From: Candidatus Methylomirabilis oxygeniifera
GTDB lineage: Bacteria > Methylomirabilota > Methylomirabilia > Methylomirabilales > Methylomirabilaceae
Assembly: GCA_000091165.1 (NCBI GenBank)
Contig: FP565575.1
Coordinates: 1,950,001-1,982,000, forward strand
Length of the DNA stretch: 32,000 nucleotides
Direction: 5' to 3'
Shown here: piece after piece, positions 517-32,000 of the stretch
Layout: each line of letters opens with the position of its first letter
How positions within the stretch are numbered: position 1 is the first letter of the stretch
Program-made: the position numbers and the translations under genes
The notes under the pieces: model-generated
Databases searched by the model: none
The model's input: only the letters and a program-made list of their open reading frames with translations
What the model was told of the DNA's origin: nothing

Positions 517-518
517 TT

Positions 519-4456: not shown

Positions 4457-4525
4457 GGGGCTGCGGGTCAGCGGCAGGCGGATGCGCGAGCGTACTCGCG
4501 TGGACAACCGTCCGCTGCAGCCGCG
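4457..4525. repeat. Copy 2 of the ~68-bp structured repeat
   Basis: GGGGCTGCGGGTCAGCGGCAGGCGGATGCGCGAGCGTACTCGCGTGGACAACCGTCCGCTGCAGCCGCG. The outer stems are GGCTGC/GCAGCC and CAGCGG/CCGCTG with a bulge. The apical stem is CGCGAG-CGTA-CTCGCG. Confidence 0.7.
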
Positions 4526-4554
4526 TGATGGCCAGCGCAAAGCGCCGGGGCATG

Positions 4555-4849: not shown

Positions 4850-4858
4850 TATTTTTCG

Positions 4859-4910
4859 GGCCGCATAGTAAGATCCCCTGAGAAGCAGCGTCAAGCAGAA
4901 AAACGAGAAC
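4859..4910. repeat. Copy B of the ~53-bp direct repeat
   Basis: See copy A at 3498-3549. It is followed by TTGACT (4916-4921), an 18-nt spacer and TGgTAGTCT (4937-4945), then the TusA-like gene. Confidence 0.85.
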
Positions 4911-4995
4911 GTACGTTGACTCGGGCTTGCCCATTTTGGTAGTCTGTGGGCGACAGAACCGTCTCAATCGAACGTCAAGGAGGATGCTGAGAACG

Positions 4996-5394
4996 ATGAA
5001 ACGATTCTTACAGTTGCTGGGAGAGATGAAGAGCTACCGACTGCCTACGGCCAAGCGGGCGCTGGAGGAACTGGCAGTAGACGACGAGCTGGTGATTGTC
5101 GTGCCCGAGCAAGCGTTGGCTGGGGAAATACAGCAGTGGGCCACCAGTCAGGGCCTCACTGTTGCCGCCCCGAAGAAGATGCTGGATGGATTAGCCCGGT
5201 TCCAACTATCAGTGAAAAAAGCTGCGCCTGCGCCTGCGCCTGCGGTAGAAGACAAGCCGGCTCCTACCACACCGGCGCCCGCCGCTTCAGGCGCGCCAAC
5301 CCCCGCGGCAGCGCCGACGCCTGCTGCAGGGCCAACGCCTCCAACCGCACCGGCCACCACCGCAGCGCCGGCCTCCGCCGGACCGACGGATTAG
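4996..5394 (+). CDS. TusA/SirA-like domain protein lacking the catalytic Cys, with Pro/Ala-rich C-terminal tail
   Basis: From ORF 4927..5394, with the start moved to ATG 4996 (AAGGAGG lies 13 nt upstream). MKSYRLPTAKRALEELAVDDELVIVVPEQALAGEIQQWATSQGLTV follows the TusA pattern, but Tyr sits where the CPxP cysteine should be. The last ~55 aa are AP/TP low complexity. Confidence 0.6.
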   Translation: MKRFLQLLGEMKSYRLPTAKRALEELAVDDELVIVVPEQALAGEIQQWATSQGLTVAAPKKMLDGLARFQLSVKKAAPAPAPAVEDKPAPTTPAPAASGAPTPAAAPTPAAGPTPPTAPATTAAPASAGPTD

Positions 5395-9232: not shown

Positions 9233-10040
9233 CGCTCGGCCGATGCTCGCCTCGCAAGTAGGCCACCCAGTACACGCCTGCAACGAGCAGAGTTCCGCCG
9301 ACTACGTTGCCGGCGGTCACAGCAACGAGGTTGCTCGTGATCCCAACGACTGATATCGTCCCGTCGCCGTCCAGCGCAAGTCCGAGGGGCAGGAAGAACC
9401 AGTTGGCGATCGAGTGCTCAAAGCCCATCGCCACGAAGGCGGTAATGGGAAAGAGAATCGCTAGAATCTTGTCGGTCGCGCTGCGGCCGCCCAGGGCAAG
9501 CCACACCGCCAGACAGACCAGCGCGTTACACAGAATGCCGCGCGCGAAGGCCTCGGTCACTGGCAGGTCGGCCTTCGCGCGAGCGATATTGATAGCCGTT
9601 TCGGCGATAGCGCCACCGCCCAGACCGGCAACGTTGGCCCACACAACGAGCAGTACCGTAGCCAGACAGCCGCTCACATTGCCCACGTAGGCCAGGAACC
9701 AGTTGCGCATGACCTCTCGGGTGCCGATCAGTTTGCTCGCCCAAGCCATGGCGATCAGGTTATTCCCGGTAAATAGCTCGGCGCCCGCAATCACGACGAG
9801 GATCAGACCGAGGCAGAAGCTTACGCCGCCGACCAACCGCGTCATACCGAACCCGAGGGTCGATTTAGTTACCGCAACGATGAAAAAGAGCGCGCCGAGC
9901 GAGATAAAGGCGCCGGCCAGGACGGCCAGCACCAGCAGCGTCAGCGCATCGGTACGCGCCTTCGCCACACCGAGGCTTTCGACCTTCCGCGCAATCTCTC
10001 GCGGCGGATAGGCGTCACTGAAGGGCTGGTCTTTATCCAT
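9219..10040 (-). CDS. Formate/nitrite transporter (FNT) family channel
   Basis: 273 aa with six TM segments. The signature motifs AELFTGN and GFEHSIAN are present. The subtype (FocA, NirC or HSC) cannot be told by eye. Confidence 0.9.
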   Translation of the reverse strand: MDKDQPFSDAYPPREIARKVESLGVAKARTDALTLLVLAVLAGAFISLGALFFIVAVTKSTLGFGMTRLVGGVSFCLGLILVVIAGAELFTGNNLIAMAWASKLIGTREVMRNWFLAYVGNVSGCLATVLLVVWANVAGLGGGAIAETAINIARAKADLPVTEAFARGILCNALVCLAVWLALGGRSATDKILAILFPITAFVAMGFEHSIANWFFLPLGLALDGDGTISVVGITSNLVAVTAGNVVGGTLLVAGVYWVAYLRGEHRPSDGPS

Positions 10041-10123
10041 TCGCCTGGCGCCCGTTCACAACGTGGTATCGCCTACCGACAAGCGTCTCGATTGCTTTGT
10101 GAGTGGACACAGCGTTCCGTGTC

Positions 10124-11410
10124 TCACTTTCCCTTTACGTGTCGCATCTCACTCGCTACGGCCTTGATTTCCGCAAGGTCCTGAACCATCTCGCTCCAGC
10201 CGTACCAGAGAGCGTAGTCGGGGTTCGCGTGAAACGTACCCTGGAAGGCTCGCATGCGGTGCTCCAGGAACATCCGGAAAAGCCGCAGCTCTACCGGCGT
10301 CGCCGCGTCGTGGAACGTGAGCAGGTCGGGAAAAGCGTGCGCGTAGGACGCAGGCTTCGCGATGATCCCGTCCTTGTAGAGACCCGCAACCACCCGGATC
10401 GCCTCCGCCATCAGGCGATCGGTCTGCCGTATCATATCGTCGCCCTTCGCCAGTTCCGCCTTGGCGAAGTTCTCCGAATGGCAGCGGCGGCAGACTGCAA
10501 TCATCTTATCGCGCTCGGCCTGCCACTCTTCCTGAGTCAGCCGGGCCACCGCAGCGGCCTTGACGACGTCGAGCCGCGCCGTCGGCTTCCCGTCCGGGTC
10601 GAGAACGCCCAACCCCTGCAGGATCGTTGCCCGGTCCGCCGCCCATTGCTTGTCCTCTGGCATCGTGAGCCGCACGGCCAGGAACCCCCACCCGGTCTTC
10701 ACGCCATGGTCGCCGTCCGGCATATGGCACGTCTGGCAGGTCGGCGCCGCGGCTTGCCCCGGCAGGACACCGGCCTGCTTCAGCAGATATCTCACCCCGT
10801 GCTTCGATGAGGAATACATCTCCCACTGCGGGTGATCAAAACCCATGTGGCAGGTCTGGCACGCCTGCGGCTGGCGCGCCTCCTCGACAGAGAAGGTGTG
10901 GCGGGTATGGCATGCATCGCAGGAGGCTACCCCGAACGCGTGCCCCTCGCCCGAGAGGTCCCGAATCTCCTTCTCACTCTTGAGGCCGATCTTGTGGCAC
11001 CCCCCACACCCTTTCATCCCCTCCGTGAGAGCCATCGGCAGATAGTGCGTCGTCGGCATCGCCTTCATCGCCGCCCAGGCGGCGGCGTGCTTGCCACGCT
11101 TGAACTGCGCCACACGCTCAGCATGGCAAATACTGCAAGTCTCAGGTGTCGGAATATCGGCTTTCGCTGTATCCATAGCGCTCGTGTGCCCATCCCCGTG
11201 GCAGGCCGCACACTCGACGCCGTTGCGGGCGTGCTTGGAGAGTTGCCAGTCCTCCACGATTCCGGGTGACTCCTGCTTGTGGCACCCGATGCAGTTCTGC
11301 GTAGGCGTGGCTGCCGCGCCCTGTGCAAGGGCACTGCCTCCTGGCGAAATCGCGGCACACGCCACCCACGCGAGCAATCCCAACACTGCGAAACGAATAC
11401 ACGACGCCAC
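10124..11410 (-). CDS. Octaheme cytochrome c of the hydroxylamine oxidoreductase (HAO) family, periplasmic
   Basis: Signal peptide, GTG start, AAAGGAG SD. There are eight CxxCH motifs (CIGCH, CAACH, CSICH, CGGCH, CDACH, CQTCH, CQTCH, CRRCH). The block CDACHTRHTFSVEEARQPQACQTCHMGFDHPQWEMYSSSKHG closely parallels the Nitrosomonas HAO core as I recall it. Confidence 0.9.
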   Translation of the reverse strand: MASCIRFAVLGLLAWVACAAISPGGSALAQGAAATPTQNCIGCHKQESPGIVEDWQLSKHARNGVECAACHGDGHTSAMDTAKADIPTPETCSICHAERVAQFKRGKHAAAWAAMKAMPTTHYLPMALTEGMKGCGGCHKIGLKSEKEIRDLSGEGHAFGVASCDACHTRHTFSVEEARQPQACQTCHMGFDHPQWEMYSSSKHGVRYLLKQAGVLPGQAAAPTCQTCHMPDGDHGVKTGWGFLAVRLTMPEDKQWAADRATILQGLGVLDPDGKPTARLDVVKAAAVARLTQEEWQAERDKMIAVCRRCHSENFAKAELAKGDDMIRQTDRLMAEAIRVVAGLYKDGIIAKPASYAHAFPDLLTFHDAATPVELRLFRMFLEHRMRAFQGTFHANPDYALWYGWSEMVQDLAEIKAVASEMRHVKGK

Positions 11411-12798: not shown

Positions 12799-13605
12799 TC
12801 AGTCGGCCAGAACGTGTGTCGTCTCGTAGCCGAGTCGTTCGGAGAGCTTGATCGCCGCCGTCTTGACGAGCGGGGCGATCTCATGTTCGATCCGGTCAAG
12901 GGAAAACCGCGACGCGGGACCGGACAGACCGATGCTGGCCACCACCTTTCGAGAATAGTCGCGCACGGGGGCGGCAATACATCGCACTCCAGGCTCGTAC
13001 TCTTCATTATCCACGGCAAACCCAAGCCTGGCCACTTCACGGAGATGCTCCCGGAATGCCTGCGGATCGGTAATCGTGTGCTCGGTGAGTTTGCGCATCG
13101 GCTCGTCTTGAAGGATGCTGTCCAACCGGTCGGCCGACTCGTAGGCCAGTTGTGCCTTTCCTGCAGCGGTGCAATGCACCGGGAGACGCCGCCCTGGAAA
13201 CGATGCGACCCGAACCATCAGGGTCGTGTCCTGAACAAGGACATAGATAACCTCCGATCCATCCAGAACGGCCAGATAGGCAGTTTCATTACACTGGCTC
13301 ACCAGCTCTTCGATGATCGGCCGGGCCTGGCGCCGAAAGCCGAGATGATGGAGGAAGACGTTGGCCAGCTCGAACGGCTTGATCCCAAGGTGGTAGTTGG
13401 CGGTCTTTTTGTCCTGCTCAATATAGCCTCGTACCTCAAGGGTAGCCAGTAGTCGAAAGACGTTATTTTTAGGCAGGTGGAGCTTCTCGGCGAGTTCCGT
13501 CACGCCTAACTCCCCTGTCTGATAATCAAACGACTCCAGGATATCAAGCGCTCGATCGACAGACTGGACGAGATAATCGGCCTTTTCTTTCTTTCGATGG
13601 TCCAT
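12799..13605 (-). CDS. IclR-family transcriptional regulator
   Basis: From ORF 12799..13656, with the start at ATG 13603-13605 (GAGGAGTGC upstream). The N-terminal wHTH is SVDRALDILESF...LGVTELAEKLHLPKNNVFRLLATLEVRGYIEQD. An IclR effector domain follows. Confidence 0.85.
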   Translation of the reverse strand: MDHRKKEKADYLVQSVDRALDILESFDYQTGELGVTELAEKLHLPKNNVFRLLATLEVRGYIEQDKKTANYHLGIKPFELANVFLHHLGFRRQARPIIEELVSQCNETAYLAVLDGSEVIYVLVQDTTLMVRVASFPGRRLPVHCTAAGKAQLAYESADRLDSILQDEPMRKLTEHTITDPQAFREHLREVARLGFAVDNEEYEPGVRCIAAPVRDYSRKVVASIGLSGPASRFSLDRIEHEIAPLVKTAAIKLSERLGYETTHVLAD

Positions 13606-13682
13606 GCACTCCTCGTATACCCTTCGGTAAAACAAGGTAACGCTTGCTCGACACATAGTCAGGTGGCAGGAAAAACGGTGTG

Positions 13683-13711
13683 ACTATAAAAGGGCGTTCT
13701 ATTTTTGTCAA
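13683..13711 (-). promoter_or_regulatory. Near-consensus sigma70 promoter for the IclR gene
   Basis: On the minus strand: TTGACA (rc of 13706-13711), a 17-nt spacer, then TATAGT (rc of 13683-13688). The adjacent TTTTTG-N6-CAAAAA inverted repeat could be an operator. Confidence 0.55.
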
Positions 13712-13727
13712 CGCAAAAATGACAGGC

Positions 13728-14441
13728 CTAAATGACCGGCCGTTCGTCAAAGATCGCCGTGCCAATCCGAACCAGCGTAGCCCCTTCTTCGATGGCGATC
13801 TCGTAATCGTGGCTCATCCCCATCGAGAGGTGACGGAGCGGACAGTCGGGACAGGCCCTGGCCGCCTCGTCTCGTAGCAGCCGGAGCCTGCGAAAGAACG
13901 GTCGGACGTCCTCGGGATTCCTGCGAAAGGGCGGGACGGCCATCAGGCCTTCGATAACCAGATGAGTGAACTGGCGACACGATTCGAGCAGCGGCACGAG
14001 GTCGTGTTCGAGCACACCGGTCTTACTCGGCTCGCCACCGAGGTTGACCTCTACGAGAACCCGTATCTGCTTCGCCAAGGCGGCCCCATGCCGGTCCAGG
14101 GCAACAGCCAGCTTGACAGAATCGAGCGAATGGATCAGCCCAAACAGCTCAGCAGCAGACCGACTCTTGTTTGTCTGTAAGTGACCGATCAGATGCCATG
14201 TGACCGGGAGCGAACTCAAGAGGGCCATCTTATCCGACGCCTCCTGGACCCGATTCTCGCCCAGCAGCATGACGCCGACATCGATCGCCTCTCGGATACG
14301 GGGAATCGGTACGGTCTTGGTGACAGCGACCAGCGCTATCTCATCAGGGTCCCGGCCGACGCGGTGAGCCGCCTCGGCCATCCGCTGCCTGACCTGCTCT
14401 ATTCGATCTTTTACCCGTTCCGTCAAGCCACCCTTCTTCAC
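13728..14441 (-). CDS. yggS: YggS/YlmE-family pyridoxal-phosphate homeostasis protein
   Basis: GTG start. ALVAVTKTVP carries the PLP lysine, and HLIGHLQTNK and SMGMSHDYEIAIEEGATLVRIGTAIF are family motifs. The position after ftsZ is typical for this gene. Confidence 0.9.
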   Translation of the reverse strand: MKKGGLTERVKDRIEQVRQRMAEAAHRVGRDPDEIALVAVTKTVPIPRIREAIDVGVMLLGENRVQEASDKMALLSSLPVTWHLIGHLQTNKSRSAAELFGLIHSLDSVKLAVALDRHGAALAKQIRVLVEVNLGGEPSKTGVLEHDLVPLLESCRQFTHLVIEGLMAVPPFRRNPEDVRPFFRRLRLLRDEAARACPDCPLRHLSMGMSHDYEIAIEEGATLVRIGTAIFDERPVI

Positions 14442-18046: not shown

Positions 18047-18929
18047 GCGCCACTCCTGTCTTCACCATCACCTCGGCTCTGGCTCGCTCGATCAGCCAGA
18101 GCACCTCTGCGGCCGTAGCCCCACCGAGGTTTACGATGAAGTTACCATGTTTCTCAGAGATCTGCGCTCCTCCTCGCCGCAGCCCCTTGAGCCCCGCCTG
18201 TTCCACCAGACGTCCCGCGAAATCGCCGGGAGGGTTCTTGAAGATGCACCCTGCCGACCTGACCTCTACGGGCTGCGTCAGATTTCTCCTCACCAGCAAC
18301 GTCGAGATCGTTCTCCTGATCTCTTCCGCCTCTGCGCGCCGGAGGGTGAAGCAGACTTCAACGATCACTGAACCCGTCGGAAGGATGCAGCGCCTATAAC
18401 CCGCATCGATCTCCGCCCGCGCGAGATACCGCTCCTCGCCTGAGCAATCCACAAGGCGAATCCAGTCAAGGTGATCAGCGATCGCGCCAAGGGACGTCCC
18501 GGCATTCCCCTTGATCGCCCCTCCAACGGTTCCCGGCACGCCCGTCAGCCCTTCGAGACCCGTCAGGCTTCTCGTCGCAGAGAGAGCCAGCAAACGGCTT
18601 GTCCGCACGCCGGCCCCGCACCTCATCTGTTCGCCGGAGACCTCAAGTTCCAGAAAGGTTTGTGAGAGATTCATGACCAGCCCCTTGACCCCCCCATCCA
18701 GCACCAGCATGTTACTGCCGCTACCGAGGATCAGAACGGGGATCGTCTCCTCCCGCGCCACCTTGAGCAGGGCCTTCACATCTTCAAGACCCGCGGGATA
18801 GACCATCACCTCGGCTGGGCCGCCGATCCGAAAATAGGTGTGCGACGCGAGCGGCTCCTCTGTGAGGACCCGCCCCTTAATGAGTCCTTGAAGCCTTTCC
18901 TGTAGACTGAGCGTTTCTATCATTGGCAT
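18003..18929 (-). CDS. murB: UDP-N-acetylenolpyruvoylglucosamine reductase
   Basis: The FAD-binding N-domain is present (YFRIGGPAEVMVYP, ILGSGSNMLV), together with the C-terminal MurB domain. dcw context. Confidence 0.93.
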   Translation of the reverse strand: MPMIETLSLQERLQGLIKGRVLTEEPLASHTYFRIGGPAEVMVYPAGLEDVKALLKVAREETIPVLILGSGSNMLVLDGGVKGLVMNLSQTFLELEVSGEQMRCGAGVRTSRLLALSATRSLTGLEGLTGVPGTVGGAIKGNAGTSLGAIADHLDWIRLVDCSGEERYLARAEIDAGYRRCILPTGSVIVEVCFTLRRAEAEEIRRTISTLLVRRNLTQPVEVRSAGCIFKNPPGDFAGRLVEQAGLKGLRRGGAQISEKHGNFIVNLGGATAAEVLWLIERARAEVMVKTGVALELEIQVVGSPIAS

Positions 18930-20347
18930 TCGGCAATCGGATTTTTGCTGATGCCTAACGGCTGATTACTGACTGCTGCCCCTTGTAGTCGGCCGACAAT
19001 CTGCTCACCGGCCTTCCAGATATCGCCCGCACCCATAGTGATGACCAGGTCCCCCGGACGGGCCAGTTCGATGACGCGATCCGGGATCTCCTCCTTACGT
19101 TCCACGTACAGAACCTTCGGTCCTTTCCGGACGACAACTCCGTCAGCAATCTGCCGACCGGAAACTCCGGCAATCGGGGTCTCTCCTGCCGGATAGATCC
19201 CGGTGATGATCACCTGATCGGCGAAGTCAAAGGCCGAGGCAAACTCGGGGAGCAACCGTTGCGTCCTGCTGTACCGATGCGGCTGAAAAATGACGATCAG
19301 CCGCCGTCCGAATCCATCTCTGGCCGCTTTGAGCGTGGCCTGGATCTCCGCCGGGTGATGAGCGTAGTCGTCGACCACCATGATATCCTGGGGACTCCCC
19401 TTTACCTGAAAACGTCGAACAACACCGGAGAACTCCCCGAGCGCCGTCCGGATTGCGGCAAATTCGATGTCCAGCTCAAGGCCCACTGCCATGGCTGCCA
19501 ATGCATTCGACACATTGTGCACTCCAGGAATCCTGAGCTGTACCTCCCCCAGCGGCTCTCCCTTGAACCTCACCTTAAAGGTGGAGCTGAGCCCGGTGAG
19601 TGATACTCCCTCCGCCATCAAATCGGCCTGCGTGTGACAGCCATATGAGACAACACGTTTCTGTACCATGGGCAACAGGTCTCGAATATGTTCCTGATCG
19701 AGGCAGAGAATCGCGGAGCCATAGAAGGGAACTTTATTAATAAACTCGAGAAACGTCTCCTTAATCTGCTGTAGATCGCGGTAGTAATCGAGGTGCTCGG
19801 CATCGACGGTGGTGACTACGGCGATGGTGGGCGCCAGCTTGAGGAACGAGCCGTCGCTCTCGTCGGCCTCCGCAACCATGAACTCGCCACGCCCGAGTTT
19901 CGCGTTGCTGCCGAGCGCATCCAGCCTGCCTCCGATGACCACGGTGGGATCGAGACCCGCCTTGGCCAGGACCGTCGCCACCATGGAGGTAGTGGTGGTC
20001 TTTCCATGGGTGCCGGCAACGGCTACGCCGTACTTCATCCGCATCAGCTCAGCCAGCATCTCCGCTCGCTGAATAACCGGAATGGCATGCGCCTTCGCCG
20101 CAACAATCTCGGGATTCTCCGGAGAGACCGCCGAGGACCGGACGACGACATCGGCCTCCTGCACGTGAGCGGGATCGTGGCCGATCTGAACGGTAATCCC
20201 CAGCGACTGAAGACGATGGGCATGCTCCGACACCTTCAGATCGGAGCCGCTGACCTGATAGCCAAGATTGTGGAGGACCTCGGCAATTCCGCTCATCCCG
20301 ACCCCTCCGATCCCAACGAAGTGGATGTGCCGGATCTTCTTAAACAT
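18920..20347 (-). CDS. murC: UDP-N-acetylmuramate--L-alanine ligase
   Basis: The start is set at ATG 20345-20347 (MFKKIRHIHFVGIGGVGMSGIAEVL). GTHGKTTT is the P-loop. The 68 codons upstream in the ORF track are read-through into murG. Confidence 0.93.
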   Translation of the reverse strand: MFKKIRHIHFVGIGGVGMSGIAEVLHNLGYQVSGSDLKVSEHAHRLQSLGITVQIGHDPAHVQEADVVVRSSAVSPENPEIVAAKAHAIPVIQRAEMLAELMRMKYGVAVAGTHGKTTTTSMVATVLAKAGLDPTVVIGGRLDALGSNAKLGRGEFMVAEADESDGSFLKLAPTIAVVTTVDAEHLDYYRDLQQIKETFLEFINKVPFYGSAILCLDQEHIRDLLPMVQKRVVSYGCHTQADLMAEGVSLTGLSSTFKVRFKGEPLGEVQLRIPGVHNVSNALAAMAVGLELDIEFAAIRTALGEFSGVVRRFQVKGSPQDIMVVDDYAHHPAEIQATLKAARDGFGRRLIVIFQPHRYSRTQRLLPEFASAFDFADQVIITGIYPAGETPIAGVSGRQIADGVVVRKGPKVLYVERKEEIPDRVIELARPGDLVITMGAGDIWKAGEQIVGRLQGAAVSNQPLGISKNPIAECQ

Positions 20348-21503
20348 GGTTGCAGCTCTCCGTCTCGCGTCGCAGGTCCGGCTTGAACAGGTGGGACCTG
20401 GCGCCTGGCGCCTGGCGCGCAGTCTGTGTAACAAGATCGGCCAAACGGATCGCCGCGTCCGGCTTCGCCAGAGCCTTCGCCCTGCGCGCCATGACCTCAA
20501 GCCCCTCTCGGTCGCGCAGACACGTCCGTATGATCTCGGCCACCGCGGCACCGCTCAACTCACAGTCCAGGACCATTCGAGCGCCGCCTGAGGCGACTAC
20601 CGCTTCAGCGTTGTACCGCTGGTGATCGTTGGCGGCAAAGGGGAACGGAACGAGCACCGACGGTTTACCTAAAGCGCAGAGCTCCACCACGGTGCCGGCG
20701 CCGGCCCGACAGACACAGAGATCGGCAGCGGCATATGCGACGGCCATCGCCTGGAAGAACGGTTCCACCGCCGCTCGATACCCCCCCACATCATATCCTT
20801 GTCGGACGACGGCAAGATCGCGCGGACCGGTGGCATGGATGAACTGGATCTGCTCTCGCTCGTCCGCAAGCAGGGGGAGCGCCTCCATGACCGACTGGTT
20901 CAGCCGGTGCGCCCCCTGGCTGCCGCCAAAGATCAGAACGGTCAGTCGATTCGGATCGAGATCCAAGCGGGTCACCGCCTCTACCCTGCTCACACCGAAG
21001 AGCTCCGTTCGGACCGGATTGCCGGTCACCCGCACCTTGTTTTTGGGAAAAAACTCGGACGCCCCCTCGAAGGTCACTGCGACGCGATCAACGATCTTCC
21101 CCAACCATCGGTTGGCCAGCCCCGGTAAGGCGTTCTGTTCATGGATCACCGTCGGGACCCTCGCAAGCACTGCCGACAGGACGACGGCGGCCGAGGCGTA
21201 GCCGCCAAACCCGACCACGACATCGGGGCGGAACCGTCGAAGGATCGACAGAGACCGAATGAGACCTGAGGGGATCAGCGTGAGACTCCGAAGCCGCGAT
21301 AGGAACCGCTTGCCCTGCAAACCGGAGGCCCTGATCCCTTCAAAATCCCACCCTCTCCTTGCCAGCAGCGATGCCTCAACCCCTCCCTCGACGCCAACAA
21401 ACAGGAGCGGTAGATCGGTCGTTCGCGACCTGAGCTCCTCAGCCAGCGCGATGGCGGGAAAGAGGTGACCGCCCGTCCCGCCCCCTGCAATGATGGCCTT
21501 CAT
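20340..21503 (-). CDS. murG: Lipid II-forming glycosyltransferase MurG
   Basis: The motif MKAIIAGGGTGGHLFPAIALAEEL and the dcw position after ftsW identify it. There is a 4-nt overlap with the ftsW stop. Confidence 0.93.
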   Translation of the reverse strand: MKAIIAGGGTGGHLFPAIALAEELRSRTTDLPLLFVGVEGGVEASLLARRGWDFEGIRASGLQGKRFLSRLRSLTLIPSGLIRSLSILRRFRPDVVVGFGGYASAAVVLSAVLARVPTVIHEQNALPGLANRWLGKIVDRVAVTFEGASEFFPKNKVRVTGNPVRTELFGVSRVEAVTRLDLDPNRLTVLIFGGSQGAHRLNQSVMEALPLLADEREQIQFIHATGPRDLAVVRQGYDVGGYRAAVEPFFQAMAVAYAAADLCVCRAGAGTVVELCALGKPSVLVPFPFAANDHQRYNAEAVVASGGARMVLDCELSGAAVAEIIRTCLRDREGLEVMARRAKALAKPDAAIRLADLVTQTARQAPGARSHLFKPDLRRETESCNHV

Positions 21504-24007: not shown

Positions 24008-25090
24008 TCACCTCAATTTCAACGTCGTGAGCGAGAGCAGGGCCAGGATAAAGGAGATGATCCAGAACCTGACAATGATCTTCGGCTCCGCCATCCCGTT
24101 CAACTCGTAGTGATGATGGATCGGCGCCATTCGGAAGATCCGTCGCCCGGTCGTCCGATAGGAGAAGACCTGCAGGATTACTGAGACGGCCTCTGCGACA
24201 AACACCCCTCCGACGATGAGCAGGAGCAGTTCGCTCTTGACCAAGACAGCAAGCGTGGCCACGGCGGCCCCGAGCGCCAACGAGCCGGTGTCGCCCATAA
24301 AAAGCTGCGCGGGATACGCGTTATACCAGAGGAATCCCATAGCCGCCCCAACGATGGCGCCGCCAAACACCGTGAGTTCGGAACTCCCTCTTACAAAGAC
24401 GACCTGCAGGTAGTGAGCGATGCTGGCATGTCCCGCAATGTACGCCAGCACCGTATACGCCGCTGCGGTCATCAGTGTCGGACCGATGGCCAATCCATCC
24501 AGGCCATCGGTCAGGTTCACCGCATTGGACGCGCCGACAATGACCAGCGTGACAAACAGGACATAGCCCCAGCCCAGATCGGGCATCCAGTGTTTGAAGA
24601 ACGGGATAGCCAGCTTTGTGGTGTAGGCATCGACGGGGTTAACGTACAGGCAGAGTCCGACAAGCATACTGGGAATCACCTGCCATAACAGTTTTGTCTT
24701 CGCTGAAAGCCCCTTGCTGTTCTTGGCCACGACCTTTCGGTAGTCGTCGATGAACCCCACCGCTCCCATCCAGACCGTACTGAACAGGGCGAGCCACACG
24801 AATCGGTTGATCAGGTTCGCCCAGAGCAACGTGGCGATAAGTATGGAGGCCAGAATCAGGAGGCCGCCCATCGTGGGCGTCCCGGCCTTCTGCAGATGGC
24901 CTGAGGGACCGTCGTCCCTGATGCTTTGGCCGATTTGCAACGCCTGAAGCCTGCGGATCAACGCAGGCCCCAACAACAGACTGATCAGCAGCGCAGTGAG
25001 GATGGCCCCGGCCGTACGAAAGGTCACGTACCGGAAGACATTTAAGGCTGCGTAGCTTTCGTGCCATGGGTAAAGCAAGTGATACAGCAT
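24008..25090 (-). CDS. mraY: Phospho-N-acetylmuramoyl-pentapeptide transferase
   Basis: A 360-aa polytopic protein with the motifs [13 protein letters not shown] and GDTGSLALG. Confidence 0.95.
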
Positions 25091-25200: not shown

Positions 25201-26511
25201 TTATTTGCCCGGAGTCACCAGATGTCGTCGATCCACCAACGCCTTACCCTCGGTCGATTTGAACTGAGTTGACCGCTTATCCCGATGGGCCTCAAGCGCC
25301 AATTCCACCAGGCGAACGATCAACTCCGCCGGTTTTACCCCGCTTCGCTCCCAGAGGGTAAGGGACAGCGATCCGGGCATAGTATTGATCTCATTGACGT
25401 ACGGCTTCATAGCGGCCGAATCGACCAGGAAATCAACCCGGGAGATCCCGCGCGAATCGATCGACTTGAAGGCCGCTGCCGCTATGGATCGTATCTCATC
25501 AGAAAGCGCCTGGGGAATTCTGGCTGGGATAATACTCGGTGCCAGGTCTGCGCTCCCCGGCTTCTTATTCTCCGGGTACTTATCGCGGTAGCCCACAACC
25601 TCACCCGAGCTGATAAGTTCCTCGCACTCCGAGACGGTCAAGGCGTGATTCCCGATGACGCCACATTGCACCTCGATCCGCTGCTGTACGGCTCGCTCGA
25701 CCAGCACACGACAACTGAAACGCATCGCGCGCTTCGCGAGGCTCAGCGCTTCAACCGCATCATGCGCCACACCGATACCGACACTGGAACCTGCCACGGC
25801 AGGCTTAACCACCACCGGATAGCTCAGTATGCGCTCAAGCGCCTGTACGACAGCCGCCTCATCTTCCAATAGTTCACGCCGGGTCACACCGATCCCCTCG
25901 ACAACGGGAAGGCCTGCGCCCTGGAATACAAGCTTGGAAATAATCTTATCCATTCCCACCGCCGAGGCGGCCACCCCGGCCCCGACATATGGCAGGTTGG
26001 CCAGTTCACACAGACCCTGAATCGTTCCATCCTCGCCATGCGTCCCGTGAATGACCGGGAAGGCCACGTCGATAGTGGGATGGAGCGTCTTACGAAGCCA
26101 GCCCTTCCGTTCCTGTTGCGGCATCAACCCGCCGACCGACGGATCCGGCGACAGAAAGAGCGGCTCAACCCCCGTTGCGTTCACGCCCCGGTCCAGGTTC
26201 TCGAGCTGCGGCGCGTATCGTTCGCGATTCAGCCGCAACTTTTCGGCATCGAGCCTCACTCGCTCATCCGGTCCGGCCATGGCGCCACGCTCCGCCAGCT
26301 TTCGTATTTCAGCATCGACCATCAACAGGTCTCGAACCGCCTCGCCGGTGAGCCACGTACCCTCCGCCGTCAGAAAGATCGGCAGCGTCTCGAACCGATC
26401 CTGCAGCGACAGCAAGACCTCGTAGACCTTGCCCGCGGTCATAATCGAAACCTCGCGCTCTACCGAGCGGCTTCCGAAGATCAGCCCTATGCGTGTCAGG
26501 CTGCTGTTCAT
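25201..26511 (-). CDS. ddl: D-alanine--D-alanine ligase, long form (436 aa)
   Basis: The N-terminus is IGLIFGSRSVEREVSIMTA. HGTHGEDGTIQGL is present, along with the ATP-grasp core and the EINTMPG motif. The omega-loop K-Y (YRDKY) is retained. The ATG overlaps the murF stop as ATGA. Confidence 0.9.
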   Translation of the reverse strand: MNSSLTRIGLIFGSRSVEREVSIMTAGKVYEVLLSLQDRFETLPIFLTAEGTWLTGEAVRDLLMVDAEIRKLAERGAMAGPDERVRLDAEKLRLNRERYAPQLENLDRGVNATGVEPLFLSPDPSVGGLMPQQERKGWLRKTLHPTIDVAFPVIHGTHGEDGTIQGLCELANLPYVGAGVAASAVGMDKIISKLVFQGAGLPVVEGIGVTRRELLEDEAAVVQALERILSYPVVVKPAVAGSSVGIGVAHDAVEALSLAKRAMRFSCRVLVERAVQQRIEVQCGVIGNHALTVSECEELISSGEVVGYRDKYPENKKPGSADLAPSIIPARIPQALSDEIRSIAAAAFKSIDSRGISRVDFLVDSAAMKPYVNEINTMPGSLSLTLWERSGVKPAELIVRLVELALEAHRDKRSTQFKSTEGKALVDRRHLVTPGK

Positions 26512-28214
26512 GCGAACTCCAGGTAGGTATCCGGCAGCCGATTCTCATACAGCAGAACATCGCCTTCGCAGACGATCGCCTTGAGACAGTCGGCTACTTC
26601 GTCCGCGTGTCTGGCTATCAGGACTCGACTTCCGGAAAAACCGGCCTCGCGAAGCCCTTCCTGTAACGGTTGTGTCTGCTGTGGTCCGACCAATACCACA
26701 TAATCGCACACCGCAGCCGCCGCCCGGCCCAAGCGGCGATTCTCCTCTGCCTCGATCTGACCCAGCTCCACCAGTCCCGGCGTGATCAGGATCTTCGAAC
26801 CTCCCTCAAACTGGCTGAGAACCTCCAAGGCCATCTGCGCCCCGCGCGGGTTGGCGTTGGCCACATCGATCAGTTTGATAACCCCGCCTTCTTCGCGAAT
26901 CTCCAGGCGCTTTGGGGCTGGCGCCAACGCCCTGACGCCAGCGGCAATCTCCTCCAGGGGCACGCCGCACTCCAGCGCCGCAGCCGTTGCCCCCAGGATA
27001 TTGCCGATGTTCCAGCCGCCCAGTAGTCTGGTCTCGAACATGGCAGCGCCATGCCCGGTCTCCACGCGAAAGGCCGAACCCTTACTGGAGAGCGTAACAT
27101 CTTTCCCGCGGACACCCAGCGCCCTCTCGTCCTCGCCGATCCCGTACAAGAGCACGCGCCGACCTTCCTGTCTCGCACGCTCGGCCAACCGCAGGCAGAC
27201 CGGATCGTCGGCGTTCACGATCGCCAAGCCGTCCGGTGGAAGCGAATCGATCAGCTCATACTTCGCCTCGGCGATCCGCTCCGGCGTGCCGAATCGCTCG
27301 AGGTGTTGGACCCCAACCGCCGTAAGGATACCGATCCGAGGCCGCAAGACCTCGCACACCTCCCTGATCTCGCCGGGGCCGTACGCCGCCACTTCGACAA
27401 CAAAGAAGCGGTGATCGTCCCGCAGCCCCTCGCGAACGACCCGCACGATACCCATCGTGGTATTGACCCCATCCGGTGTCTTAAAGACCGGGTAGCGTCC
27501 ATGAAGCAACGCGGCGGTAATAAACTTGGTCGTGGTCTTCCCATAGCTCCCCGTGATCCCGATTACCTCTCCGGGATAGCGCCGCATACGCGCCGTTGCC
27601 TGCGCATAGAAACGCCGATTGATCGTCCGCTCCAACGGGGCGAGGCTCGCATTTGCCGCGAGGATCGTACCCGCTGCGACCTCAGACACCGTGAAAAGGC
27701 CGGCGACCAGGCCGATACCAACAAGGAGGGTGCGGGGAGCCACCGTAAGCCGGGACAACACGACCACACTCGACCAGGAGATGACAAGCAGGACCGCCGC
27801 TGCCAGAACGGACGTGACCGCTGCCAGGCGCACCGTTCGGGAGGTCCACTGCAATCGCTGGCTGACCTGAAGCGAGGTATACCGGGTTCTCAACCAGATC
27901 CCGGCGGCCAGCCAGACGATATACAACATGCCTATCCCAACGTACCTGAAGCCGAGAATGGAAGAGAGGGGCAAGCACGCAAAGAGGATTCCGGCCCCCA
28001 GAACTGCCGCCTGGACGAGGACTCCTCGGCCGTCCAGGACGATGCCCCAGTGCCTGACGATCCAGCCCCGCAGTCGCGCGCCGTTGTACCGCTCTAACTG
28101 GGCAAGGTAGATCAGATCCAGATGGCGTGCCACTGCGACCGCCACATACGGCAATAGACCGGTGACGGCCCGACCCGCAAACGAAGACCCGAGCGTCGTA
28201 TCCGACTGCATCAT
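26508..28214 (-). CDS. murF: MurF-like Mur ligase with polytopic membrane N-terminal region
   Basis: The central and C-terminal Mur-ligase domains are present (GITGSYGKTTTK, VGVQHLERFGTPERIAEAKYEL, NADDP). The first ~190 aa carry four hydrophobic helices instead of MurF domain 1. The start is chosen at ATG 28212-28214, an ATGA overlap with the hydrolase stop. A GTG at 28229 is the alternative. Confidence 0.8.
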   Translation of the reverse strand: MMQSDTTLGSSFAGRAVTGLLPYVAVAVARHLDLIYLAQLERYNGARLRGWIVRHWGIVLDGRGVLVQAAVLGAGILFACLPLSSILGFRYVGIGMLYIVWLAAGIWLRTRYTSLQVSQRLQWTSRTVRLAAVTSVLAAAVLLVISWSSVVVLSRLTVAPRTLLVGIGLVAGLFTVSEVAAGTILAANASLAPLERTINRRFYAQATARMRRYPGEVIGITGSYGKTTTKFITAALLHGRYPVFKTPDGVNTTMGIVRVVREGLRDDHRFFVVEVAAYGPGEIREVCEVLRPRIGILTAVGVQHLERFGTPERIAEAKYELIDSLPPDGLAIVNADDPVCLRLAERARQEGRRVLLYGIGEDERALGVRGKDVTLSSKGSAFRVETGHGAAMFETRLLGGWNIGNILGATAAALECGVPLEEIAAGVRALAPAPKRLEIREEGGVIKLIDVANANPRGAQMALEVLSQFEGGSKILITPGLVELGQIEAEENRRLGRAAAAVCDYVVLVGPQQTQPLQEGLREAGFSGSRVLIARHADEVADCLKAIVCEGDVLLYENRLPDTYLEFA

Positions 28215-28978
28215 CGGCCGTCCTGCCACAAGAACTCCCTCGCCACCCGGCTAAAACGGTCCGGCTGATCGACAAACGGGAAATGGCCGGCCCCTTCAAA
28301 CACCTCCAACCGCGAGCCCTGTATGCCGCGCGCCATGATCTCCATCGAAGAAAAAGGTACCTCCTGATCCCGATCTCCCCAGATGATCAGCGTAGGCACG
28401 CGAATAGACGGCAAGATCCCTCGAAGATCTTCGCCGACGACCTTGACCAGCGTAGCGCGCATAGGTCCGGCGTTCCGATAGTCCCGCGATCCTATCCGTC
28501 GATAGAGTTCGGCTACAATCCGCTCGCCCAGCCTACCCCACACAGGTAACGAAAACAGCCGTTTTGCCAGCTTCACGGAGCCGACCTTGACGCGAAACAG
28601 AAGCCCTCGTCTCGGGCGGATCCCCGCACTGGCCGCCAGAATAAGACTTCGAACCCTGTCGGGCCTTTGAGCGGCTAACACAAGCGCGATTCGGCCTCCA
28701 AATGAATGCCCGATCAGGTCGGCCGTCTGGATACCAATGCGATCCATGAACGCCTCGACATAGGACGCATACTCCCATGTCCCCCACGTTGTCGTAGCGG
28801 ATGGGGTCCAGCCAAAACCCGGCAGGTCAAGCGCGTATACCCGGAATCGATCCTCTAACGCCTTGGCAACGACACTCAATGACTCGGCCGAGGTGCCCCA
28901 TCCATGCAGAAGAACCACCGGCCTGCCCTCTCCCCACACAATGAAATGGGTGTCCAGGTCACCAACACGAATCAGCAC
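28211..28978 (-). CDS. Alpha/beta-fold serine hydrolase
   Basis: HGWG forms the oxyanion region, GHSFGG is the nucleophile elbow, GDRDQEV carries the acid, and GAGHFPF carries the His. GTG start. Confidence 0.85.
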   Translation of the reverse strand: MLIRVGDLDTHFIVWGEGRPVVLLHGWGTSAESLSVVAKALEDRFRVYALDLPGFGWTPSATTTWGTWEYASYVEAFMDRIGIQTADLIGHSFGGRIALVLAAQRPDRVRSLILAASAGIRPRRGLLFRVKVGSVKLAKRLFSLPVWGRLGERIVAELYRRIGSRDYRNAGPMRATLVKVVGEDLRGILPSIRVPTLIIWGDRDQEVPFSSMEIMARGIQGSRLEVFEGAGHFPFVDQPDRFSRVAREFLWQDGR

Positions 28979-28991: not shown

Positions 28992-29113
28992 ACAGGGTAT
29001 AGGGTATAGGGTGTAGGGTGTAAGAACAGGGTTCAGAGTATTAGGGGGTAGAGTGTAACAAAGAGTTTCTTGGTGTTTTCTTAACTCCATACCCTTTACC
29101 CTACACCCTGTCT
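28992..29113. repeat. Heptamer (TAGGGTR) inverted-repeat element in the murE|hydrolase spacer
   Basis: There are about ten period-7 units on the plus strand from 28993 (CAGGGTA TAGGGTA TAGGGTG TAGGGTG TAAGAAC AGGGTTC AGAGTAT TAGGGGG TAGAGTG ...). Three inverted units lie at 29088-29110 (rc CAGGGTG TAGGGTA AAGGGTA) and overlap the last murE codons. Confidence 0.85.
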
Positions 29114-30615
29114 TTACGGCGGAACCCCAACTCGTGAAGCGCCTCTCGCGCCACCAATCGATCATCAAAGGGGATCGTTCGATCGCGAAGAATCTGGTAG
29201 GTCTCGTGTCCCTTCCCCGCGATCACCACCATGTCACCTCTACCCGCCAGCGAGAGGGCCTCCCGAATTGCCATCCCTCGGTCTAAAATTGTAACATAGC
29301 CCTTACCCTGCCCCCACACCTTTTTCGCCCCGGTTTCGATCTCCTCAATGATCTGATGAGGGTCCTCACCACGAGGATTATCGGATGTGATCACCGTGAA
29401 GTCGGCCAATTCCAGAGCGGCTTCTCCCATGAGCGGACGCTTCCCCCGATCGCGCTCTCCTCCGCATCCAAACAGGACGATCAGGCGTCCTGGACAGCAT
29501 TGCCGCGCCATGCGGAGGACACGTCGCAGCGCGTCCGGGGTATGCGCATAATCAACCATCACACTGAACGCCTGCCCAGTCTCCACCCGCTCACACCGAC
29601 CCGGAACGTGATGGAGCGCTGCGATCCCGTCGGCCACCGCGGACAAATCCGCGCCCAGATGCAACCCTGTAGCGGCAGCCGCCAGGATGTTGGACAGGTT
29701 GTAGCGTCCCAGTAGCGGAGAGCGAATCGCCGTCGTCCCCCACGGCGTCTGCAACCGGCACCGGATTCCGTCCGGCCCCATCTTGACATCAGCAACCGAC
29801 AGATCCGCCGGTCCCTCCACGCTGTAGCTGTAACGCCTCACCCGCGTCGCCCCAAGAAAGAGATCTGCGGCCGGATCATCCAGATTGACGACCGCCGCCT
29901 TCTCCGTCGTTTTTGTTGACCCTACGCCCAATCCCTCAAACATGGACAGCTTTGCGCTCCGATACGCCTCCATGGTGCCATGAAAGTCCAGATGGTCCTG
30001 CGTCAGGTTCGTGAACACGGCCACGTCAAACTCGCAGCCATCAACGCGATGCAAAGCCAGGGCGTGCGATGAGACCTCCATGACCACACTATCGGCGCGC
30101 AGACGCGCCATCCGTTCGAGGAGCGCTTGCAGATCGCAGGATTCCGGTGTGGTCCGCGCCGCCTCCAGCTCCAGCTCGTTACAGCGATACCCGATCGTGC
30201 CGATCAGTCCGACCTGATGCCCCGCGCACCGTAGCACCGACTCGACCAGGTAGGTCGTGGTGGTCTTGCCGTTGGTCCCGGTCACTCCCACCATGGAGAG
30301 ACTGCGCGAGGGATGACCGTAGAACCGACACGCAACGGCAGCAAGGCTTTGCCGGGTATTCGCCACCTTCACCACCGTCCCGCCCTGCAGCGCCGCCTCC
30401 GTCAGATCGGTTCGCTCTACCAGGGCTGCAACAGCGCCTGCTGCCCAGGCGGCCTGAATAAAGTCGTGGCCATCCCGCCTGAACCCTCCGATACATACGA
30501 ACAGATCGCCGGGCTTTACCTGTCTGGAATCGTACCGGATCTCATGAACCTCCAGATCGACGGACCCGCGGAGGACCTGGTGCTCGGTTCCGTTAATTAA
30601 GTCGAAAAGCTGCAT
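29101..30615 (-). CDS. murE: UDP-N-acetylmuramoyl-L-alanyl-D-glutamate--2,6-diaminopimelate ligase
   Basis: GVTGTNGKTTTT is the P-loop. The DNPR motif (TSDNPRGEDP) indicates meso-DAP specificity. The start is set at ATG 30613-30615 (GGAAGGGA upstream). The ORF-track TTG at 30654 is the alternative. Confidence 0.92.
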   Translation of the reverse strand: MQLFDLINGTEHQVLRGSVDLEVHEIRYDSRQVKPGDLFVCIGGFRRDGHDFIQAAWAAGAVAALVERTDLTEAALQGGTVVKVANTRQSLAAVACRFYGHPSRSLSMVGVTGTNGKTTTTYLVESVLRCAGHQVGLIGTIGYRCNELELEAARTTPESCDLQALLERMARLRADSVVMEVSSHALALHRVDGCEFDVAVFTNLTQDHLDFHGTMEAYRSAKLSMFEGLGVGSTKTTEKAAVVNLDDPAADLFLGATRVRRYSYSVEGPADLSVADVKMGPDGIRCRLQTPWGTTAIRSPLLGRYNLSNILAAAATGLHLGADLSAVADGIAALHHVPGRCERVETGQAFSVMVDYAHTPDALRRVLRMARQCCPGRLIVLFGCGGERDRGKRPLMGEAALELADFTVITSDNPRGEDPHQIIEEIETGAKKVWGQGKGYVTILDRGMAIREALSLAGRGDMVVIAGKGHETYQILRDRTIPFDDRLVAREALHELGFRRKDRV

Positions 30616-32000
30616 TGCGGATCCCTTCCGCCAGCCGAAACGGCGCTCGGTCAACTGGGGTCTTCCTAAGGTGCTTCAGGGACTCACGAGCAATCTCCCG
30701 GAACGTCGGCGCCGCAATCGATCCGCCCCAACGGAGTGTGGTCGGCTCATCAATGATGACGATAATAGCCAGTCGAGGCCGCTCTACCGGGACAAACCCG
30801 ACAAACGACGCCACCACCTTATGTCGAGAGTAACGGCCGGTCGCTCGATCTACCTTCTGAGAGGTCCCGGTCTTGCCTGCTACTTCGAATCCCTCCACGG
30901 CAGCGGCCTTTCCCGTTCCTTCCGTCACGACTCCCTTAAGAATAGTCGCAAGGGTTCTCGCGGTATCTTCCGAGATAACTCGTCTGACCTGCATCGGTGC
31001 GTTCTCGAGGACAACTTGGCCGTCCGCCGCAACGATTGATTTCGCAACGTATGGACGAATCAGGTTGCCGCCGTTCGCAATAGCGCTCATCGCCGTTAAC
31101 ATCTGCAGCGGACTGACGGAGATCTCCTGTCCGATGGAGAGCGATGCGAGCGAGAGGGCCGACCACTCCTTCGGACGTCGGATCAAACCGGGCGTCTCTC
31201 CCGGCAGATCGATCTTAGTAAGATTCCCGAACCCGAACCCGCTGATGTAATCGTAGTAGTGGCTTTTGCCTAACCGCTGGCCGACCCTAATAGCCCCCAC
31301 ATTACTGGAGTGAGCCATCACCTCGGCAAACGTGAGGGTCTCAAACCGTTCGTGATCCCGAATCGTGACCCCGCCCACCTCGATGGCGCCCCCCTCAGCG
31401 TTGAACCGGTCTTCTGGCCGCACAAGCCTTTCCTCCAGGGCACCGGCGCCCACGATGGCCTTGAATGCCGACCCCGGCTCGTAGTAATCAGCCACCGCGC
31501 GATTCCGACGGGCGAACGCCGATGCCTCGGCATACACATTAGGGTCAAACGTCGGATAGTTGGCAAGCGCCAGGATCTCGCCGCTGAAAGGATCCATCAC
31601 AATGGCGCTGCCGCTGAGCGCGACGGATTGGCTCACCGCAGCCTCCAGCTCCCGCTCAGTGATATACTGGATCACCTCATCAATCGTCAGATGCAGATCT
31701 GAACCCTGTGCTTCGCCGGCTTCCTCTCTGAAGATCGGCCGACGCTTGGCATCCTGTTGCCGCATGATCCACTTACGCTTACCGGCCAGGTAGATATCGT
31801 ACTGCAGTTCAAGTCCTTCCAGTCCCTGGTCGTCCGTCCCGACAAATCCCAGCAGGTGGGCTGCCTGTTGGGATTTCGGATAAAATCGCTTACCATGCAC
31901 ATCGGATCCGATCCCCTTCAGCATAAGGCGCTCCACTGCCTCCGCCTCCTCAGCAGAGGCTGATCGCTTGAGGTAGACAAACGACTTTCCTGCTCGCAAT
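30593..32000 (-). CDS. ftsI: Peptidoglycan D,D-transpeptidase FtsI / PBP3 (N-terminus outside the window)
   Basis: The transpeptidase motifs are SAFK (SxxK), SSN (SxN) and KTGT. The gene lies upstream of murE. The ORF is open to the right edge of the window. Confidence 0.9.
   Translation of the reverse strand, partial: LRAGKSFVYLKRSASAEEAEAVERLMLKGIGSDVHGKRFYPKSQQAAHLLGFVGTDDQGLEGLELQYDIYLAGKRKWIMRQQDAKRRPIFREEAGEAQGSDLHLTIDEVIQYITERELEAAVSQSVALSGSAIVMDPFSGEILALANYPTFDPNVYAEASAFARRNRAVADYYEPGSAFKAIVGAGALEERLVRPEDRFNAEGGAIEVGGVTIRDHERFETLTFAEVMAHSSNVGAIRVGQRLGKSHYYDYISGFGFGNLTKIDLPGETPGLIRRPKEWSALSLASLSIGQEISVSPLQMLTAMSAIANGGNLIRPYVAKSIVAADGQVVLENAPMQVRRVISEDTARTLATILKGVVTEGTGKAAAVEGFEVAGKTGTSQKVDRATGRYSRHKVVASFVGFVPVERPRLAIIVIIDEPTTLRWGGSIAAPTFREIARESLKHLRKTPVDRAPFRLAEGIRNAAFRLN

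Follow-up and report, generated by a model that had tools for sequence, protein, structure and literature searches.

How does a MurF-type ligase work when the domain that should hold its substrate has given way to a stretch of membrane helices? MurF is an essential, heavily studied antibiotic target; to our knowledge, every description of it has been of a soluble enzyme with three domains, the first of which holds the uridine diphosphate (UDP) end of the substrate. The question is raised by a gene in a 32,000-nucleotide stretch of the Candidatus Methylomirabilis oxygeniifera genome (assembly GCA_000091165.1, contig FP565575.1, positions 1,950,001 to 1,982,000 of the forward strand), which we call the window and whose coordinates are used throughout. 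On the basis of sequence comparisons, we consider it reasonably probable that this gene encodes the D-alanyl-D-alanine (D-Ala-D-Ala)-adding enzyme of the organism, a MurF-type ligase from a subfamily that is anchored in the membrane and acts at the inner face together with its own Ddl and a hydrolase. The gene and its two ligase domains are located as follows.

26508 to 28229, minus strand: membrane-anchored MurF-type ligase, an uninterrupted open reading frame (ORF) of 573 amino acids from the GTG at 28229, assigned by Pfam and NCBIfam.
26976 to 27560, minus strand: central ATP-binding domain (PF08245), with P-loop G224-K235, E279, H309 and K323.
26550 to 26909, minus strand: C-terminal Mur ligase domain (PF02875), with R441, D455, N458, N460-P461, the motif TPGxVELG and a family-specific C-terminal ENxLPD.

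The ATG at 28214, which overlaps the stop codon of the upstream gene (ATGA), is the likely true start and gives a protein of 568 amino acids; in the numbering used here, window positions 27630 to 28214 correspond to residues 6-200. An earlier note on this DNA had proposed that the P-loop lies unusually far from the N terminus, behind a membrane region that takes the place of MurF domain 1. The P-loop, GITGSYGKTTTK, does occupy residues 224-235, whereas the motif is found at residue 110 in the two canonical MurF proteins that we compared. Pfam identified only Mur_ligase_M (PF08245; residues 225-418, E=4e-38) and Mur_ligase_C (PF02875; residues 441-560, E=2.6e-9), and PF01225, the Mur ligase N-terminal domain, was not detected in the ligase by the same search that found it in the MurE and MurC of the window. 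The N-terminal 224 residues matched no Pfam family even at E<=10, and searches with Pfam at that threshold, with NCBIfam and with a profile against the PDB revealed no residual domain 1. The murF model TIGR01143 aligns residues 209-560 with profile positions 63-402 of 418; because the alignment begins at position 63, the first ~62 positions, which represent domain 1, are unmatched. Similarly, a profile built from 14 close homologues matches solved MurF structures only from chain residue ~63-95 onwards, and from ~residue 209 the ligase corresponds to the last part of canonical domain 1 together with its linker. An AlphaFold2 model of the full-length protein (mean predicted local distance difference test score (pLDDT) 81.9) consists of a series of long helices followed by two MurF-like ligase domains, with transmembrane helices where a UDP-binding, PF01225-type domain stands in MurF, and Foldseek matched this model to MurF structures over ~370 columns only. 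The proposed replacement of domain 1 by a membrane region is therefore upheld by the domain searches and the structure prediction, and also by the position of the gene and the conservation of the N-terminal region across phyla, both of which are described below.

Such an architecture could in principle arise from a sequencing or assembly error, or from a recent frameshift, that joined a small membrane gene to a truncated murF. An in-frame methionine, M215, does stand just ahead of the ligase domain, but no sequence resembling a ribosome-binding site precedes it, the linker is confidently modelled as an unbroken helix running from the last membrane helix into the ligase, and we found no support for this explanation. 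The reading frame is continuous, and the identical 568-amino-acid ligase was called on 16 independently assembled contigs, some of them from Methylomirabilis enrichment runs. The best 120 database relatives (55-100% identity) all belong to NC10/Methylomirabilota and are nearly all 536-573 amino acids long, the three shorter entries being partial; more generally, homologues keep both length and architecture from 100% down to ~31% identity. More than 150 clusters at 50% identity share this single-ORF architecture, as do 75 of the 80 genome loci that we analysed. A frameshift, a split gene or an assembly error is ruled out by the continuous frame, the 16 contigs and the family-wide architecture, and we regard an artefact of any such kind as extremely improbable.

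The first ~217 residues of the ligase form a predicted helical membrane domain that is confidently modelled. Its elements, which we defined from hydropathy, from the AlphaFold2 model and from alignments (A1, A2 and A3), with 36 diverse members that are 31-55% identical to the query, are these.

28128 to 28181, minus strand: predicted transmembrane helix 1, residues ~17-34, running from outside to inside; AlphaFold2 helix 10-45; family mean Kyte-Doolittle hydropathy 2.03; preceded by an N terminus poor in lysine and arginine.
28062 to 28127, minus strand: cytoplasmic juxtamembrane helix with the motif LHxLQLExY...W, RHLDLIYLAQLERY in this protein, in the lysine- and arginine-rich loop 1; from alignments A1, A2 and A3.
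27948 to 28022, minus strand: transmembrane helix 2, residues 70-94; hydropathy; AlphaFold2 helices 67-90.
27888 to 27941, minus strand: transmembrane helix 3, residues 97-114; hydropathy; AlphaFold2 helix 92/95-116.
27828 to 27881, minus strand: basic cytoplasmic loop with the motif KKPLVYTxRAKRL, SLQVSQRLQWTSRTVRL in this protein; from the alignments; loop 3 holds a mean of 5.1 lysines plus arginines.
27756 to 27836, minus strand: transmembrane helix 4, residues 132-158; hydropathy; AlphaFold2 helix 130-161.
27654 to 27731, minus strand: transmembrane helix 5, residues 167-192; hydropathy; AlphaFold2 helices 166-183 and 185-217.
27561 to 27653, minus strand: linker helix from transmembrane helix 5 into the ligase, residues 193-223, with P198, E200 and A211; from the alignments and AlphaFold2.

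The four hydrophobic stretches on which the earlier note had based a four-helix region are all present (residues 70-94, 97-114, 132-158 and 167-192, with 19-residue Kyte-Doolittle means of up to 2.0-2.4), but the count of four is probably one too low, as a weak fifth helix at residues ~17-34 precedes them. This helix is only weakly hydrophobic in the present protein (mean hydropathy ~1.4) and is clear in the family as a whole, in which five hydrophobic segments with mean values of 1.7-2.0 were found. Across the family, loop 1, loop 3 and the linker after helix 5 each carry 5-6 lysines and arginines, compared with fewer than one in the N terminus, loop 2 and loop 4. Because of this distribution and the positive-inside rule, the domain most likely consists of five helices with the N terminus outside, so that both motifs and the ligase would face the cytoplasm. 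This topology is supported by a natural fusion (P0138), in which the hydrolase described below, a cytoplasmic protein, is attached to the N terminus of the ligase and the LQLEEY motif is preceded by an additional, inserted transmembrane hairpin.

Specific polar residues of the domain are conserved. In the LHxLQLExY motif, Q44 and Y48 are invariant among the 36 members and W56 is nearly so; in the KKPLVYTxRAKRL motif, T129 and R131 are invariant, and R134 is invariant in alignment A3 and at least 90% conserved in A2. In the linker helix, A211 is invariant, P198 is invariant in A3, and the pair P198-x-E200 is invariant or nearly so. A model of the N-terminal domain alone, built from 22 sequences, was predicted with high confidence (pLDDT 90.7, predicted TM-score 0.84), and a Foldseek search of the PDB with this model returned no relative, the best match having E=1.9 and a TM-score of ~0.2. 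A profile search with the domain found just 10 matches, which were fragments of the same family and one hydrolase, within the limits that the word index sets on such a search. Neither Pfam (2025) nor NCBIfam (June 2026) holds a model for the N-terminal domain or for the membrane-ligase subfamily.

The earlier note had called for a survey of this architecture. In an exhaustive profile hidden Markov model search of 1.84 billion cluster representatives, the best 150 matches, which we examined, were almost all 503-575 amino acids long and matched from profile position ~17-38 to ~555, with E<=1e-104 at rank 150; nearly all of them have several hydrophobic segments ahead of a P-loop at residue 160-230. 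Scanning one genome for each GTDB species, we obtained at least 593 confirmed relatives, those listed coming from NC10, Poribacteria, Chloroflexota, Acidobacteria, Thiomargarita, Synergistaceae, many Clostridia, Tissierellia and Bacilli, as well as Bacteroidales, Rhodothermales, Balneolaceae and Chitinophagales. When we searched with a Bacteroides member as the seed, thousands more came up, with Muribaculaceae prominent among their hosts; NCBI names these proteins MurF. The architecture is thus that of a large, widespread family and no peculiarity of this genome. Database entries label the members MurF or 'Mur ligase family protein', and we found no description of a membrane-anchored MurF in searches of the full-text literature or in PMC10214165, PMC11915815 and PMC8871954; this widespread MurF-type subfamily with a membrane domain is so far undescribed.

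To which Mur ligase does the catalytic region belong? With PF08245 and its P-loop, PF02875 and the catalytic Glu, His, Lys and Arg residues, the protein is a member of the Mur ligase superfamily of ATP-dependent amide ligases (MurC-F, Mpl, MurT, CapB, FPGS and CphA), and its machinery is intact (P-loop, E279, H309, K323, R441, D455 and NxNP); among the 36 diverse members, E279, H309 and R441 are invariant and K323 nearly so. TIGR01143 (murF) scores 218.1 bits, compared with 66 for murE, 66 for murC and 64 for murD, and the top PDB matches by sequence and by fold are all MurF. We also compared the 71 positions from residue 200 on that are at least 90% conserved in the family with three canonical MurF proteins and with the MurC, MurD and MurE of this genome. 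Thirty-five of these positions are identical in the three canonical MurF proteins, and nine of the 35 are absent from MurC, MurD and MurE; nine positions are universal among Mur ligases. In a rough neighbour-joining tree, which has no support values and in which two labels from Poribacteria carry MurE sequences of the same loci, the family forms a clade beside canonical MurF, with MurE outside. In its central and C-terminal domains, the ligase is, by sequence, closer to MurF than to other Mur ligases.

The position of the gene agrees with this assignment. It is the middle gene of a three-gene cassette that lies in the division and cell wall (dcw) cluster of the window, in the order ftsI-murE-[hydrolase-ligase-ddl]-mraY-murD-ftsW-murG-murC-murB-ftsQ-ftsA-ftsZ.

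29101 to 30654, minus strand: murE, the upstream dcw neighbour (NF001126, 585 bits).
28211 to 28978, minus strand: alpha/beta-fold serine hydrolase, cytoplasmic, the first cassette gene, from Pfam; its stop overlaps the ligase start (ATGA).
25201 to 26511, minus strand: DdlA-type D-alanine--D-alanine ligase, the third cassette gene (NF002528); its start overlaps the ligase stop (ATGA).
24008 to 25090, minus strand: mraY, the downstream dcw neighbour (PF00953 and the MraY signature).

The cassette therefore occupies the slot between murE and mraY, the usual place of murF. The dcw cluster of the window is otherwise complete and contains no canonical murF and no other ddl, the usual place at the murB/ftsQ junction included. 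A second NC10 genome and five genomes of Poribacteria have the same murE-cassette-mraY arrangement, and the NC10 and Poribacteria clusters hold no canonical murF or second ddl either. On a Chloroflexota chromosome (L038:6495-11972), a complete mraY lies inside the cassette, in the order hydrolase-ligase-mraY-ddl.

To identify conserved partners, we took 80 loci (+/-10 kb), mapped the dcw proteins of the window onto them and sorted their 973 ORFs by clustering into families, of which only three recur: the ligase (75/80), the alpha/beta hydrolase directly upstream (65/80) and Ddl directly downstream (62/80), and the order hydrolase-ligase-Ddl is nearly always kept. No other conserved neighbour emerged among the 973 ORFs, the remainder being lineage-specific housekeeping synteny (enolase, RNase R, SmpB and H+-PPase), and no second murF-like match was found in any of the 80 loci. 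In the window, ATGA overlaps join all three cassette genes, and elsewhere the hydrolase and the ligase are fused in either order (P0138 and P0153). In Synergistaceae (L057:7071-9356), one ORF of 761 codons covers the hydrolase and the membrane ligase, an apparent fusion with no adjacent Ddl.

The cassette Ddl scores 295 bits with NF002528, above the cutoff of 262, its nearest PDB structures are DdlA, and it keeps the catalytic Glu, Arg, Asp, Glu and Asn residues as well as the omega-loop pair K311-Y312. A Lys-Tyr pair is typical of D-Ala-D-Ala ligases and not of those making D-alanyl-D-lactate, and we classify the cassette Ddl as D-Ala-D-Ala-type by this sequence signature. Cassette Ddls are generally long (median ~400 amino acids), and the one in the window has an insertion of ~35-40 residues (~residues 70-105) that is nearly absent from the others (column occupancy ~0.03). 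The hydrolase has a Ser92-Asp204-His232 triad that is 100% conserved and a family motif GSxDY. We found no signal peptide in it. Among proteins of solved structure it is closest to generic esterases and lipases, the best PDB match being a generic alpha/beta hydrolase at 101 bits.

These results point to a membrane-anchored enzyme for the MurF step because MurF is the best-scoring family by a wide margin, the gene takes the place of murF in the dcw cluster and has a Ddl of the D-Ala-D-Ala type as its partner, and also because of the ATGA coupling, the fusions with the hydrolase and the invariant polar residues on loops that are rich in lysine and arginine and hence cytoplasmic. In the mechanism that we favour, the ligase would be produced along with its two partners through translational coupling, the DdlA-type partner would supply D-Ala-D-Ala to the ligase, and the LQLExY helix, the KKPLVYTxRAKRL loop and the P-x-E linker would stand in for domain 1 by holding the carrier end (the nucleotide diphosphate) of the N-acetylmuramic acid (MurNAc)-tripeptide acceptor. 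The pentapeptide precursor would then be completed at the inner face of the membrane, beside MraY. Altered substrate presentation and a membrane-tethered Mur complex, the consequences that the earlier note had drawn, may follow. Methylomirabilis has an isolable, lysozyme-sensitive peptidoglycan sacculus (PMC8671808), and a D-Ala-D-Ala-adding activity is therefore needed on the standard understanding of the pathway. The genome may carry no other murF.

Several observations weigh against this reading. The score of 218.1 bits is below the curated TIGR01143 cutoff of 288.6, a shortfall that fits the unmatched profile positions 1-62. Fourteen of the 71 conserved positions are specific to the family and differ from all three canonical MurF proteins, among them the P-loop tyrosine Y229 (Asn in MurF), TPG at 483-485 in place of LGD in xxGxMxELG, and the invariant C-terminal ENxLPD (ENDLPD here); substrate specificity could accordingly differ. 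A simple MurF reaction leaves the associated hydrolase unexplained. Finally, in the Firmicutes and Bacteroidales loci that we recovered, the cassette stands alone, away from dcw genes, and these hosts are expected to carry canonical murF and ddl. If they do, the cassette may be accessory there, with a possible other role.

The same observations bear on a different explanation, in which the ligase is a paralogue outside the main peptidoglycan pathway that has another membrane-associated carboxylate, whether of a lipid, of a polymer or of a recycled or edited muropeptide, as its acceptor for a D-Ala-D-Xaa dipeptide, while a canonical murF elsewhere does the housekeeping. Outside NC10, Poribacteria and Chloroflexota, the cassette is indeed a self-contained trio with variable housekeeping neighbours and a patchy distribution across phyla; the family-specific substitutions fall at conserved positions of the catalytic domains, and the textbook MurF step has no place for a hydrolase partner. 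Against it, the cassette fills precisely the place of murF in the dcw cluster of two unrelated phyla and adjoins mraY in a third, with no canonical murF or ddl within those clusters; the MurF-type catalytic region, the D-Ala-D-Ala-type Ddl and the lack of copies on plasmids in PLSDB also speak against it. We regard this explanation as improbable.

In favour of the MurF reading, some of the stand-alone copies have neighbours with a peptidoglycan flavour, namely AsnB-like, beta-lactamase-like and Mpl/MurC-like genes. Stand-alone ligases with peptidoglycan-related neighbours are found at L018:5879-7213, L006:9563-11338, L034:2036-3892 and L035:734-3448. In the Chitinophagales copy, a beta-lactamase-like gene overlaps the 3' end of the ligase gene; AsnB-like amidotransferases adjoin the ligase in Thiomargarita and Bryobacteraceae; and the Rhodothermales copy has an Mpl/MurC-like ligase and an M19 dipeptidase nearby. 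We searched PLSDB for plasmid-borne copies and found no membrane ligase; its matches were all canonical MurF proteins covering residues 215-562, and we rejected a plasmid-borne, resistance-like cassette. On a plasmid of Streptomyces sp. 11x1, NZ_CP122459.1 (L086:1-5540), a cluster encodes a Ddl, a pyridoxal phosphate (PLP)-dependent enzyme, a C39 peptidase, a canonical murF and an additional 'Mur ligase domain-containing protein', which together may serve in precursor remodelling.

In a further explanation, the chemistry is that of MurF and the acceptor is not UDP-MurNAc-tripeptide but undecaprenyl-diphosphate-linked MurNAc-tripeptide (lipid I or lipid II tripeptide) in the inner leaflet. This would place MraY ahead of 'MurF' in the pathway, or else give the cassette a repair function on lipid-linked precursors whose terminal dipeptide is missing. 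The hydrolase would have these lipid-linked species as its substrates too, trimming them or releasing trapped carrier lipid. The sole UDP-reading part of MurF is gone, and the conserved residues of the domain that replaces it are predicted to lie at the membrane-cytoplasm interface; the tight coupling and fusion of hydrolase and ligase are easier to explain if both handle a membrane substrate; and the cassette is an extra in lineages where a canonical MurF is expected. There is a precedent on the ligase side in MurT, a weak sequence relative here (E ~1e-11), which acts on lipid II, and on the hydrolase side in UshA, which acts at the cytoplasmic face on undecaprenyl-phosphate-linked sugars (PMC11898649). 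On the other hand, conserved Y, Q and E residues beside arginines would suit a uridine-diphosphate site equally well, membrane tethering by itself could account for the domain, and the best PDB match of the hydrolase is only the generic one given above. We therefore treat a lipid-linked acceptor as possible, if rather unlikely. More speculatively, and to our minds doubtful, NC10, Poribacteria and perhaps others might run MraY first and then use the membrane MurF to add D-Ala-D-Ala to the lipid-linked tripeptide through a new lipid-diphosphate-binding domain, with the hydrolase proofreading or clearing dead-end lipid intermediates, and the cassette of Firmicutes and Bacteroidales might be a module for lipid II repair or editing.

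We also noted several features of the rest of the window. The murC ORF (18920 to 20551, minus strand, 543 amino acids) has its Mur ligase N-terminal domain starting at residue 75 and overlaps murG (20340 to 21503) by ~210 nucleotides; its listed GTG start is probably too far upstream. Right after ftsZ (12799 to 14441, minus strand) come a YggS-type PLP-binding protein (Ala_racemase_N fold) and then an IclR-family regulator. Downstream of the dcw cluster (6527 to 11410, minus strand) are genes for a P-type cation ATPase (918 amino acids), a formate/nitrite transporter family protein and a multi-haem cytochrome c, a set that fits a nitrite-dependent methane oxidiser. Positions 1 to 5000 have a GC content of 0.53-0.55, compared with ~0.60 elsewhere, and contain several ORFs without a Pfam match and one SH3_3-domain protein.

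A broad subfamily without domain 1 thus spans the abundant gut Muribaculaceae, Clostridia and environmental phyla, and defines both a new domain and a new hydrolase partner. It is a natural system in which to test the long-held view that Mur enzymes are arranged at the membrane beside MraY, and raises the testable possibility that D-Ala-D-Ala is added to a lipid-linked precursor. The labels 'MurF' and 'Mur ligase family protein' hide a distinct enzyme class, whose response to MurF inhibitors directed at the UDP pocket may differ.

How does this enzyme compare with known systems? MurT is a Mur ligase homologue that lacks the UDP-binding N-terminal domain and acts on lipid II at the cytoplasmic face. 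MurT (MurT-GatD; PDB 6GS2, 6H5E and 7Q8E) is related to the present ligase by weak sequence similarity over the central domain (E ~1e-11 to 6gs2 and 7q8e), but it is soluble, has a DUF1727 C-terminal domain and requires the glutaminase GatD, none of which applies here: the NCBIfam MurT models (cutoffs tested for NF045635 and NF052464) gave 22-32 bits against cutoffs of 800, and we found no DUF1727 in the protein and no GatD-like neighbour. CapB/PgsB, the poly-gamma-glutamate synthetase, is a member of the Mur ligase family that is tethered to the membrane by an N-terminal hydrophobic sequence and works in a membrane complex. It polymerises glutamate with the partners PgsC and PgsA, whereas the N-terminal domain described here is a conserved five-helix bundle with motifs of its own, the neighbours are a hydrolase and a Ddl, and no CapB/PgsB model was among the Pfam and NCBIfam matches. 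Fusions such as MurE-MurF (PDB 8F5D) illustrate how Mur ligases are rearranged or joined to favour channelling of consecutive steps, according to a survey (PMC10214165); the fusions join complete soluble enzymes, and the survey mentions no membrane-anchored form. UshA (YqjL) of Bacillus subtilis, an alpha/beta hydrolase of the cytoplasmic face that frees undecaprenyl phosphate from lipid-linked sugars (PMC11898649), is by its description a possible functional analogue of the cassette hydrolase, although it has no link to a Mur ligase. The closest system is canonical MurF (UDP-N-acetylmuramoyl-tripeptide--D-alanyl-D-alanine ligase, EC 6.3.2.10; PDB 1GG4, 4CVK, 4QF5 and 3ZL8), which makes UDP-MurNAc-pentapeptide from UDP-MurNAc-tripeptide, D-Ala-D-Ala and ATP, whose central and C-terminal domains match the ligase in sequence (E 1e-40 to 1e-46) and in fold (Foldseek E ~1e-22 over ~370 columns), and which it resembles in the P-loop, the Glu, His, Lys and Arg residues, the DxxNxNP motif, the nine MurF-specific positions, the murE-mraY slot and the Ddl partner. 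Canonical MurF has domain 1 and a P-loop at ~110; here a 217-residue, five-helix membrane domain is followed by a P-loop at 224, and, unlike canonical MurF, the family is tied to an alpha/beta hydrolase and forms its own clade in the rough neighbour-joining tree.

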